Shown one piece after another: positions 40,321 to 42,629 of a DNA stretch of 64,000 bases. The position numbers and the translations under genes are program-made. Position 1 is the stretch's first letter. The number at the start of each line of letters is the position of its first letter. Under the pieces are notes generated by a model, which was given only the letters and a program-made list of their open reading frames with translations, did not search any database and had not been told where the DNA came from. Source of the DNA: Leptonemataceae bacterium (GTDB lineage Bacteria; Spirochaetota; Leptospiria; Leptospirales; Leptonemataceae); contig OZ245742.1 of NCBI GenBank assembly GCA_965227295.1, forward strand, positions 3,520,001 to 3,584,000, given 5' to 3'.

Positions 40321-41097
40321 ATGGGCGGCGCACACGAAATAGAAGCAACGCTGGCCGAAGCCTTTCGCAACTATAAGACGATCGTACTGCGCTCGCGCCT
40401 GCTGCGTGATCGCGGCGAAGAAAAGCTCGAGATCATCGTCGATCGCCTGTTGCAGTTTCTGAATCGTCACGATCTGGCCGGTCCCATCTATGCCGCGGTG
40501 CGCGAGTTAGTGCAGAACGCATCCAAGGCGAATCTCAAACGCATCCTCTTTGAAGATCTGGGCGTGGATCCCGACGACGACTCGCGTTACCAGGAGGGCA
40601 TGCAGATCTTTCGGCGCCAGCTCATCCGAACGAAACTCAAGGGCTACGCCCCGCGCATCGTGGAGAAACGCCTCTACTTTAAGATTCGTTTCGAGTACAG
40701 CCCCGAGGTCATTGTCGCCACCGTGCGCAACCCCTTCGAACTCTACGAGGCCGAAGAAGCCCGCATCCGCCAGAAATTCGTGCAGGCCCGGGGCATCGAC
40801 AATCTCTACGACTTTTACTTAAAGCACGGCGATACCGTGGAGGGCGCGGGCATGGGCATTGCGATGGTGCTGATCCTGCTGAATCAGGCCGGCTTTGCGA
40901 GTCGCTGCCTCAGTATCTTTACGGACCGTCGAGCCGGCGAAACAGTCTCGCGAATGATTCTACCGCTCCGCGAAGATTATCGCCCGCCCCGCGAACGTTT
41001 CGTGGACGAACAGGAACGACGGGGAGTGACGGCCGAGGCGCTGCGTGATATGATGACCCGCGGCGAAGTGCGGATACCGATTTTCGAAAATCGCTGA
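40321..41097 (+). CDS. GHKL/HATPase-like protein without recognisable H-box
   Basis: N-box ELVQNASKAN and G-box EGAGMGI; paralogous to 62949-63665 and 63712-64000. Confidence 0.7.
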   Translation: MGGAHEIEATLAEAFRNYKTIVLRSRLLRDRGEEKLEIIVDRLLQFLNRHDLAGPIYAAVRELVQNASKANLKRILFEDLGVDPDDDSRYQEGMQIFRRQLIRTKLKGYAPRIVEKRLYFKIRFEYSPEVIVATVRNPFELYEAEEARIRQKFVQARGIDNLYDFYLKHGDTVEGAGMGIAMVLILLNQAGFASRCLSIFTDRRAGETVSRMILPLREDYRPPRERFVDEQERRGVTAEALRDMMTRGEVRIPIFENR

Positions 41098-41145
41098 AAT
41101 GCCGGGGAACCCGGGGAATATGGCAGGGCGGATTGTTAGCGAACC

Positions 41146-41312
41146 GCTCTTGAATTACCGGAAACGCTCAGGTTTTTTGCGCCCGCCCCGAATCGTGCAG
41201 TAAGTGGCGGCCATTGTACATTAAGGCTCTTATGGGTACAGCTGGTTCCAGCTAACGAGCGGAGGTCATGCCGGGGAATGTGGTAAGGCGCACCGGAACG
41301 GCGTCTTCGTCG
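41146..41312 (+). ncRNA. Candidate structured non-coding element, copy 1
   Basis: About 90% identical to 41477-41643; stems TGCGCC/GGCGCA, CCCCG/CGGGG, TGTAC/GTACA, TCC(A)GCT/AGCGGA. Confidence 0.5.
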
Positions 41313-41476
41313 CAAGATTCGCCTCGGTAGCTGAGTCGCACAATCAGCGTCCGGGTCGAACGCAGTATTCTCAGCAAAACGAAACTCCACAACTCCCGCT
41401 CAACTGTAGCAATAAAGCCCCCTTCACAATTCCGCGACTTGCTTCATGTGTCTCACGGCAAACGCTACGAGACACA

Positions 41477-41643
41477 GCTCTTGAACTACCGGAAACGCTC
41501 AGGTTGTTTGCGCCCGCCCCGAATCGTGAAGTAAGTGGCGGTCAGTGTACATTAAGGCTTTTATGGGTACGGCTGGTTCCAGGCGACGCCTGGAGGTTAT
41601 GCCGGGGGACGTGGTAAGGCGCACCGGAACGGCGTCTTCTTCG
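41477..41643 (+). ncRNA. Candidate structured non-coding element, copy 2
   Basis: Direct repeat at 331-bp offset; variable segment forms a perfect TCCAGGC/GCCTGGA hairpin. Confidence 0.5.
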
Positions 41644-41722
41644 TAAAGATCCAACTAGCGAATCCGCACCCCGGAGCCCCGCTCTATCCGTGAGGTGAGC
41701 CGTGGCCAACGGCTTAGAGGTT

Positions 41723-42124
41723 TTATTGCGGCGAAACGCGATTGAGCAATTGTTCAATGCCCGAGCGGTCGTCGATGAGGTCGTGGACGCGTTCGGCCAG
41801 CTTGCGTTCCAGGGGATAGACGTGTTTGCGCCGGGTGAGCATGCGCTCCAGGGTCTGGGTGATCATGTCGCGCTCATCAGCGCCCATGGCGTGGACCGTG
41901 GCCTTGAGTTCGCTGGAGTAGAGTTCCGCCTGGAACTCGTCCACGGGGGTTTCCAGTAGCTTGCGCACACGGCCGCACTCCGGCCCTTCCATGGAAAGCG
42001 AGGTGATCCAGTCTTCCAGGACCTGGCGATCCTCTTCCGTCGGTCGGTTGCCGTCGGCCCAAGCTTCAGCCAGCATCACTTTCAACAGAATTTCTTTGCG
42101 ACAATCTTCTTGCGTGAAGGACAT
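41723..42124 (-). CDS. TerB-like protein
   Basis: LLKVMLAEAWADG...EED..L pattern of TerB/DjlA N-terminal fold. Confidence 0.6.
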   Translation of the reverse strand: MSFTQEDCRKEILLKVMLAEAWADGNRPTEEDRQVLEDWITSLSMEGPECGRVRKLLETPVDEFQAELYSSELKATVHAMGADERDMITQTLERMLTRRKHVYPLERKLAERVHDLIDDRSGIEQLLNRVSPQ

Positions 42125-42242
42125 GATATTGCGTCTCGATACGCTTTCTTAACTAAAGCGATGAATGATACGGCGCGTAAACGAAAAAAAATTCGAACCG
42201 GGCCGACTTTTGTTAGATTTGCGTTCGGAGACTGTCACAGGT

Positions 42243-42629
42243 TTAATTGACGGCCTGGGGCGAGACAAGCTGAAATGTTTCAATGCGGGCGTCGAATTCT
42301 TCCCCGCTGTCCAGGACGATCATGCGGTACTCACCCTGCATGGTCCCGAATTCCGTGGGGAGCGGGCAGAAGCTCGTGTACTCAAACGACTGGCCGGGTT
42401 CCAGACGCGGTTGTTTGCCGACCACACCGGGGCCGCGGACCTCATCCACGCGTCCGTAGGCGTCTCGAATTTTCCAGTGCCGGCTTACCAGTTGCACGGC
42501 CTCGTCTCCCTCGTTGGTGATGGTCACTTCGTACGCGAAGAAGTACAGCGGCTGCACCGGATTCGAACGCTCCGGCACGTACCGCGGCTGCACCTGTACA
42601 CGCACTCCCCGGGTGATCGCGTTGGACAT
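42243..42629 (-). CDS. apaG: ApaG protein
   Basis: FAYEVTITN, QLVSRHW.I, GPGVVGKQP, GTMQGEY. Confidence 0.95.
   Translation of the reverse strand: MSNAITRGVRVQVQPRYVPERSNPVQPLYFFAYEVTITNEGDEAVQLVSRHWKIRDAYGRVDEVRGPGVVGKQPRLEPGQSFEYTSFCPLPTEFGTMQGEYRMIVLDSGEEFDARIETFQLVSPQAVN

Follow-up and report, generated by a model that had tools for sequence, protein, structure and literature searches.

The window analysed here, 64,000 nucleotides (nt) of a Leptonemataceae bacterium (positions 3,520,001-3,584,000 of the single 5,938,550-bp contig, C1, of its genome, G000), contains a pair of similar sequences between two convergent genes, and our findings identify this pair as one locus of a large family that behaves as repetitive DNA and not as a pair of folded RNA genes. 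The explanation we favour, and regard as probable, sees the locus as part of a lineage-specific, hairpin-less and satellite-like tandem repeat that is interspersed among intergenic gaps and built from units of ~331 bp, each made of two modules (E1 and E2). An initial annotation, drawn from the window's sequence, had proposed two independently transcribed, paralogous structured RNAs instead, and its account of the primary sequence is accurate: the direct repeats 41146-41312 and 41477-41643 align without gaps at an offset of 331, differ at exactly 17 of 167 nt with six of these differences clustered in 41252-41260, and lie in a 625-nt gap between convergent open reading frames (ORFs; Table 1). 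Their similarity is far above chance, and a repeat finder extends the pair to 41143-41315 and 41474-41646 (173 nt, 89% identical, 19 differences). What does not hold is that the pair stands alone, since the 158-nt 'spacer' between the copies is itself a conserved repeat and the family comprises 116 arrays. In all, at least 543 of the 625 nt in this gap are repeat.

Used as a query against its own genome, the first of the two repeats (copy A) returned at least 42 matches, and a full BLAST search of G000 gave 243 high-scoring segment pairs that resolve into 235 copies in 103 same-strand arrays. Single copies make up 34 of these arrays; two, three, four, five and seven copies are found in 25, 30, 11, 2 and 1 arrays, respectively, so that 69 of 103 hold at least two copies; strand is uniform within each array. 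Spacing from copy to copy is 329-331 nt in 56 of 132 cases and 326-335 nt in 72, with minor groups near 370, 390-396 and 420-450 nt. The segments between copies are conserved without exception (127/127) and typically match one another at 80-89% over ~155 nt, and this conservation of the presumed spacers sets the true unit at ~331 nt. For the same segments a CRISPR array was rejected: the repeat is 173 nt long and 127/127 'spacers' match others at 80-89%. A consensus from 48 clean units has 330 columns (mean pairwise identity 0.775), and with the unit profile built on it 331 pieces are recovered, grouped into 116 arrays that range from 0.15 to 7.17 units and total 74,994 bp or 1.26% of the 5.94-Mb genome. 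With head-to-tail units, a constant period and several loci, the family has a satellite-type architecture. In the window, nhmmer with the unit profile delimits an array of 1.64 units at 41145-41687, in which similarity of the second unit fades past ~41650 (beyond column 173 there are 11 ungapped identities in 45). Two public runs carry the same organism label and may be those from which the assembly was made. Their short-read contigs agree exactly with the unique flanks and break within the repeat, with a pile-up of ~100- to 245-fold over the flanks.

The unit is composed of two separable modules, E1 (columns ~28-178) and E2 (columns ~182-330). Each also occurs alone, E1 as pieces within columns ~20-190 (38-179, 34-172 or 15-177, for example) and E2 as pieces within columns ~180-330 (179-328, 186-329 or 174-330). 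We considered the unit as a diverged dimer and rejected this, local alignment having E1 and E2 as unrelated (z ~0.5 against shuffles). Arrays start in three broad classes (columns 9-60, columns 140-205 or near the unit border) and end at columns 160-230, at column 300 or beyond, or at column 125 or before. Internal duplications of columns 207-250, 182-204, 142-178 and 145-216 are recurrent and point to slippage or unequal exchange.

Exchange between copies is evident from how the units are related to each other. Their identity is 0.857 within the same array and 0.801 between different arrays, no more than 50 of 161 copies are closest to a unit of the same array, and identities of 97-98% are reached by several pairs of units separated by megabases. 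Four variable blocks (columns 24-42, 110-117, 137-146 and 217-225) come in two or three discrete haplotypes each; between blocks 20-100 nt apart, all haplotype combinations are found and linkage is at equilibrium (Cramer's V 0.00-0.22, p 0.16 to 1.0). Since the blocks reassort freely, the units are mosaics; frequent exchange of short tracts among loci would produce such a pattern, and simple local duplication does not explain it. A nested insert of 66 nt bears on the same topic. It consists of two perfect hairpins, is the only hairpin element of the family and is present in ~20 units, where it sits between columns 155 and 156, a point within the family's most conserved word. The profile detects it at 14 unit junctions and BLAST in 19 full-length matches (65-66 nt, 18 of 19 at least 90% identical, most copies 95-100%). 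The 13 host units tested are 82.1% alike compared with 80.9% for random units, and the best match of 11 of them is a unit without the insert. Either the insert entered repeatedly at this point, and would then be site-specific and similar to repetitive extragenic palindromic (REP) elements, or it was spread by gene conversion. It was not found in the two congeners G001 and G002, in a search run without a positive control.

Coding potential and structure

The repeat is neither coding nor constrained to any fold as RNA or single-stranded DNA. The initial annotation was correct that no ORF is conserved: every one of the six frames of the consensus contains stops. In addition, column entropy lacks 3-periodicity (by phase 0.53, 0.62 and 0.63), and the differences in length between units are not multiples of three. 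The judgement that the pair is not a riboswitch was right as well, and so in spirit was the fallback of the initial annotation, a small non-autonomous element, which comes close to the evidence. Its main proposal, a ~115-nt multibranch core kept by compensatory changes in two paralogous structured RNAs, finds support neither in Rfam nor in folding z scores nor in an alignment of 203 copies. Rfam had 0 matches at E <= 10 in 40900-41900, and its sole match in two other array regions (12.9 kb) was noise (E = 0.86) inside a transporter gene. Judged against dinucleotide shuffles, the + strand of the whole unit folds at -100.9 kcal/mol compared with -103.2 +/- 5.6 for the shuffles (z +0.41), and the - strand of the 331-nt unit scores z +0.14. 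The two 167-nt copies reach z +0.66 and +1.33, with minimum-energy folds that differ between them, and for the 119-nt core the + strand reaches z +0.04 and -0.53 and the - strand +0.53 and -0.55. The nested 66-nt hairpin insert, our positive control, scored z -5.24 and -4.08. Hence, folding energy is no lower than that of shuffled sequence, which is at odds with what is generally asked of a structured RNA.

For individual helices we surveyed 203 distinct family members covering columns 34-152. The closing stem TGCGCC/GGCGCA (H1), initially described as invariant, is fully paired in 2 of them and has one mismatch at most in 5. The inner CCCCG/CGGGG stem (H2) is indeed paired in 168 of 203, but both of its sides are nearly invariant. 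Full pairing is found in 65 of 203 for the TGTAC/GTACA helix and in 86 of 203 for TAAG/CTTA. The hairpin that contains the six clustered differences is fully paired in 33 of 203 and extended only in a minority of haplotypes; its commonest haplotype (46/203) retains only three outer pairs, and the perfect hairpin of copy B is a rare variant. So the substitutions that were seen as structure-preserving are a peculiarity of this pair and not a property of the family. In an unbiased scan of stacked column pairs, the summed compensatory fraction of a helix never exceeded 0.05 (+ strand) or 0.09 (- strand), and mutual information is mostly found between positions less than 10 nt apart, i.e. within local haplotype blocks. 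RNAalifold assigns only -14.8 and -11.0 kcal/mol to 86 full units. When 45 copies were folded singly and their pair probabilities averaged, one shared pairing emerged, columns 91-98 with 262-269, for which no covariation is seen: columns 98/262 read GC in 38 units, AC in 28, GU in 13 and AU in 7, the last number being close to the 8.1 calculated for independent columns. Absence of covariation among homologues is what the initial annotation had itself named as speaking against its proposal, and none was found among the 203. A viroid-like or rolling-circle origin, raised by the arbitrary phase of the arrays, was rejected too, with no ribozyme motif and no rod-like fold.

Distribution, origin and genomic placement

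Among 40 relatives searched by BLAST, the sole match was weak, partial and located in the congener G002. The commonest 20-mer of the family has 116 copies in G000 and was found at 2 places in 185,579 species genomes, in 0 viral contigs and in 8 metagenome contigs; all ten outside matches are due to chance, the profile fitting only over the seed (22-50 columns). Plasmid and phage collections gave no matches, and in a literature search we found no description of the family. The match in G002 led to an element of ~75 nt with sharp edges and unrelated flanks that equals columns ~201-275 of E2. Its core, expressed as a pattern of three blocks at fixed spacing, yields 171 hits for G000, 6 for G001 and 10 for G002. 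The remaining 39 genomes from the taxonomic family and the remaining 187 from the class (190 in total) contain none, and the reversed pattern, which served as control, occurs nowhere. E2 copies in the congeners are solitary, and the core is 74-80% identical to them over 50-96 nt. For E1, a pattern with 163 matches in G000 has 0 in G001 or G002 at up to 3 mismatches. From these genomes, we take E1 to be private to G000 and the 75-nt core of E2 to be older and spread across the genus. The 13 congener copies of E2 examined lie in convergent (6), codirectional (5) or divergent gaps (0), with placement unsettled for 2, and occur in both orientations; 12 congener cores aligned and folded together with that of the window yield -1.2 and -4.0 kcal/mol, and their compensatory pairs number 0 and 1. 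Congener-type core bases are also seen in a few solitary E2 copies of G000 itself (C1: 1378731-1378777, 1423641-1423687 and 3214633-3214679), two of which lie in E2-only pieces. Such copies may be ancestral and predate the expansion, and expansion from one derived E2 copy that became fused to E1 would fit the sequences.

At the locus in question, the gene order thrC, the gene for a 258-amino acid (aa) protein, the convergent gene for a 133-aa protein and apaG is kept in both congeners (protein identities 54-74%). The gap between the two middle genes measures ~90 nt in G001, ~150 nt in G002 and 625 nt in G000, and in G001 and G002 it has neither a profile match nor any likeness to the unit. By this comparison, the array is an insertion in the G000 lineage.

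Genome-wide placement was assessed with our own rough codon-usage gene caller (4,624 genes, 86.5% of the genome). Neighbours of the arrays are convergent in 54 of 116 cases, codirectional in another 54 and divergent in 8, while convergent and divergent gaps each account for 18.5% across the genome. In codirectional gaps, the array is found close behind the upstream stop codon, and the wider free stretch faces the promoter; distances from array to neighbouring stop are mostly 0-40 nt. Orientation in these gaps is the same as that of the genes in 24 arrays and opposite in 30. With replication direction deduced from GC skew (minimum ~1.18 Mb, maximum ~4.09 Mb), the element's + strand is leading in 72 arrays and lagging in 44 (p = 0.012); among genes, the share on the leading strand is 54%. 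The mechanism that belongs to the explanation we favour is one in which the fused E1+E2 unit would have spread through the genome as DNA, loci would often exchange short tracts by ectopic recombination or gene conversion and so stay similar, and arrays would grow, shrink and gain internal duplications via unequal exchange and slippage. Copies would survive only where promoters stay intact, i.e. downstream of genes.

Other features at and around the locus are collected in Table 1. The degenerate remnant just past the stop codon of the upstream gene is 85% and 75% identical to 41271-41290 and 41602-41621, respectively. The terminator-like hairpin sits between the end of the array and the stop codon of the downstream convergent gene and, if real, would imply that + strand transcripts cross the whole array before ending. 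ARAGORN found no tRNA or tmRNA in the window. The 258-aa protein encoded upstream belongs to a paralogue family with 9-10 members per congener (24-57% identity). Elsewhere in G000, a gene for a DHA2-type MFS efflux transporter (L062:2025-3581, - strand), for which QepA is the best model yet far below cut-off, is flanked by a 5.5-unit and a 3-unit array.

Table 1. Features of the repeat locus and related sites; positions refer to the window unless a locus or contig is named
Feature	Position	Strand	Remarks
Full repeat unit 1	41145-41472	+	profile columns 3-328 of 330
Partial repeat unit 2	41474-41687	+	profile columns 2-217
Module E1, copy A (core of the element first annotated)	41170-41320	+	columns ~28-178
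Module E1, copy B	41501-41651	+	repeat finder, BLAST, profile
Module E2 (first presumed a non-repeated spacer)	41324-41472	+	columns ~182-330
E2 genus-wide core motif, conserved blocks at fixed spacing	41349-41395	+	pattern match G000:C1:3561349-3561395
Degenerate remnant, 20 nt	41111-41130	+	~columns 129-148; direct-repeat family D2
Terminator-like hairpin and T-run	41696-41716	+	consensus scan, 1 site against 1.3 expected by chance (weak)
Upstream flanking gene, 258 aa	40321-41097	+	no Pfam family; 47 nt from stop to array
Downstream convergent gene, 133 aa	41723-42124	-	stop 35 nt after the array; DUF533 similarity weak, below cut-off
66-nt insert, example	L062:1183-1248 (G000:C1:2985782-2985847)		~20 further copies elsewhere in G000, none in the window
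Tyrosine recombinase genes near arrays	L062:4656-5699; L063:5008-6045; L061:2489-3394	+; -; +

Weighing the explanations

Several of our observations weigh against a satellite-like repeat that spreads and persists merely as DNA. Conservation along the unit is strongly uneven, with columns 146-168 and 205-216 near-invariant in ~200 copies and hypervariable blocks standing beside near-invariant ones; as this is not obvious for neutral junk, it points to a sequence-specific function and suggests that some blocks may be recognised by a protein, either of the host or of a mobilising kind. Similarly, the E2 core is ~75% identical across species whose flanking orthologous proteins are 54-74% identical, and such identity between species suggests constraint. 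Arrays located at stop codons must be transcribed at least as 3' untranslated regions (UTRs), so that a role at the RNA level is possible. Single changes in CCCCG/CGGGG lead to U-G on the + strand in 25 cases and to C-A in 6, a faint hint of RNA pairing on that strand which transition bias or shared descent could explain. The placement counts carry the roughness of the gene caller. Finally, array ends are scattered over tens of nt and hence fuzzy rather than sharp, 40500-42300 contains no inverted repeats that reach 14 nt and no terminal inverted repeat (TIR), and a recurrent flanking (target-site) duplication was not seen by eye, a formal search not having been made. With fuzzy ends and neither TIR nor target duplication nor transposase found, the seeding step is without direct support. 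Helix scans detected no conserved complementary termini. As for enzymes, no Y1 (RAYT/IS200, PF01797) transposase is present in the closed 5.94-Mb genome (the control search was positive in 6 of 14 genomes), and a search for Y2 transposases was uninformative, its controls having given nothing.

Alternatively, the arrays might have a host function at the DNA level. The unit would then be a cassette of putative protein-binding sites for nucleoid organisation, for insulators or roadblocks between convergent units, or for recombination. This would agree with conserved blocks at fixed spacing in the absence of secondary structure, with placement independent of orientation, with an E2 core found at gene ends in three species (convergent in 6/13 and divergent in 0/13 congener copies) and with the modest replichore bias (72 vs 44, p = 0.012). 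We nevertheless consider it rather unlikely, for the binding protein is only putative, 6-10 solitary copies suffice in the congeners and 187 further genomes of the class do without any, the orthologous gap functions with no array, copy number per locus varies widely and arrays are truncated haphazardly. At the RNA level, a role that dispenses with a conserved fold may be thought of, in which the arrays would form 3'-UTR extensions or separate unstructured RNAs whose invariant single-stranded motifs act as a sponge or decoy for a protein or for RNAs. Arrays that begin 0-40 nt past stop codons must be contained in any read-through transcripts, the invariant blocks do not pair, changes in H2 show their slight excess of U-G-compatible outcomes on the + strand, and the terminator-like hairpin following the window array is on that strand, too. 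Yet the two orientations are equally common (24 vs 30), which means that for half of the arrays the complement would be transcribed, and a promoter-like site is lacking inside the window array, the sole one in the scanned stretch being in the upstream gene; we therefore doubt this option. Readings of the E2 core as a sigma-70, sigma-54 or extracytoplasmic function (ECF) promoter, compared by eye only, were rejected, as no spacing fitted. Structured RNAs of the kind originally proposed (small RNA, tRNA-like or ribozyme) have become highly improbable: in this one pair several differences do fall where pairing can be drawn, but there is no known family and no tRNA, stability resembles that of shuffles, the closing stem is formed in 2/203 and covariation is missing from 203 copies.

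Mobilisation by a tyrosine recombinase, in a manner that exploits Xer or resembles gene cassettes and lets arrays arise via repeated site-specific insertion beside existing units, seems very unlikely to us. It would account for the fact that neighbouring units are often not closest relatives. Moreover, of the four tyrosine recombinases in G000 (XerD, above cut-off, one XerC-like and two divergent integrase-like proteins), the genes of three (XerD, the XerC-like one and one integrase-like) lie within ~1.5 kb of an array, compared with a rough estimate of ~7% of genes that close, and an array is found 34-36 nt upstream of the start of the XerC-like and of one integrase-like gene, although arrays otherwise avoid the promoter side. 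This association was noticed after the fact, however, and is a lead only, and XerC and XerD are housekeeping genes. Array ends that spread over tens of nt in three broad classes do not define a single crossover point, no attC- or dif-type palindrome stands out, and scores against the integron integrase TIGR02249 are far below the cut-off (25.9-162.9 bits, cut-off 265). An integron cassette or attC array was rejected on similar grounds (no palindromic fold, no integron-integrase score above cut-off). A dif-like site in E2, compared by eye with a dif consensus, was unconvincing. A more ambitious version of the satellite-like repeat we favour sees the family as true bacterial satellite DNA: without hairpins or transposase, resident in more than 100 gaps at gene ends, kept in concert by short-tract gene conversion and built on a genus-wide 75-nt motif of blocks at fixed spacing that would be a putative recognition site for a protein involved, for instance, in recombination or, between convergent genes, in insulation or termination. 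We put this joint reading forward tentatively, as possible though not likely. If true, expansion of the family would amount to natural amplification of a functional cis element, with the near-invariant blocks being where the protein binds.

Comparison with known repeat systems

A false lead is removed in that what looked like a novel pair of structured RNAs is one locus of a repeat family. For a bacterium this family is unusual, with a 331-bp unit at 116 loci that occupies 1.26% of the genome and lacks the hairpins, inverted ends and transposase of REP, BOX and MITE (miniature inverted-repeat transposable element) systems. With blocks that reassort freely among more than 200 copies, the family offers a natural system to measure ectopic gene conversion on a bacterial chromosome. 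The 75-nt core found across the genus, its blocks set at fixed distances, provides a concrete candidate for where a protein binds at gene ends. From a practical point of view, the arrays break short-read assemblies at more than 100 places.

Like REP elements and the bacterial interspersed mosaic elements (BIMEs) they form in enterobacteria and pseudomonads (REPIN-RAYT systems), the family is non-coding, extragenic, lineage-specific and mosaic, has hundreds of copies and is found in arrays at gene 3' ends and in convergent gaps. REPs, described in part in PMC3184786, are GC-rich palindromic hairpins of ~35 nt in alternating orientation that are linked to a RAYT (Y1) transposase. The G000 unit differs from them in that it is 331 nt long, strictly head to tail and devoid of hairpin potential, with no Y1 transposase found. 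BOX elements of Streptococcus pneumoniae and rhizobial RIMEs share with it separable boxes that also occur alone, variable numbers, intergenic location and many copies. Their modules are 45-60 nt long (RIMEs measure 100-180 nt overall) and predicted to form stable stem-loops, whereas E1 and E2 are ~150 nt each and unstructured, so of the features that typify BIME, BOX and RIME repeats the family has separable solo modules and no stem-loop modules. MITEs resemble it in being small, non-autonomous, non-coding, intergenic and present in many copies. They are defined by TIRs along with target-site duplications and insert singly; in the G000 family no TIR was found, ends are fuzzy and copies are concatenated.

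Eukaryotic satellites and minisatellites come near in another respect, as they too have head-to-tail units of a few hundred bp in variable arrays at multiple loci, homogenised by unequal exchange or gene conversion and with higher-order variants. Here, the family resides in a 5.9-Mb bacterial chromosome, in arrays of no more than 7 units between genes. A survey of prokaryotes, that of Koressaar and Remm (2012) on 613 species (PMC3372372), defines species-specific repeats as at least 85 bp long and present in at least 2 copies at 80% identity or more, with no stretch above 60% across 50 bp in other species. In that survey, only 0.4% of such repeats exceed 20 copies, the maximum is 111 copies of a 141-bp repeat, most are below 200 bp, ~11% are tandem and ~17-19% are intergenic or of unknown origin (PMC3372372). 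Unknown origin, presence in one species, partly tandem arrangement and intergenic location are thus shared with the G000 family, and among the genomes searched E1 fits the definition; the E2 core (74-80% in G001 and G002) does not. With 163-235 copies per module, the family is above the maximum quoted from that survey (PMC3372372) and with a 331-bp unit beyond the range it reports, albeit in counts that are not strictly comparable given the threshold of at least 80% identity there. Taken together, niche, copy number, modularity and lineage restriction are as in REP/BIME, BOX, RIME and MITE-type repeats, and the architecture is closer to that of satellite DNA under concerted evolution. We therefore see the element as a new, unusually large and hairpin-less form of bacterial interspersed intergenic repeats.

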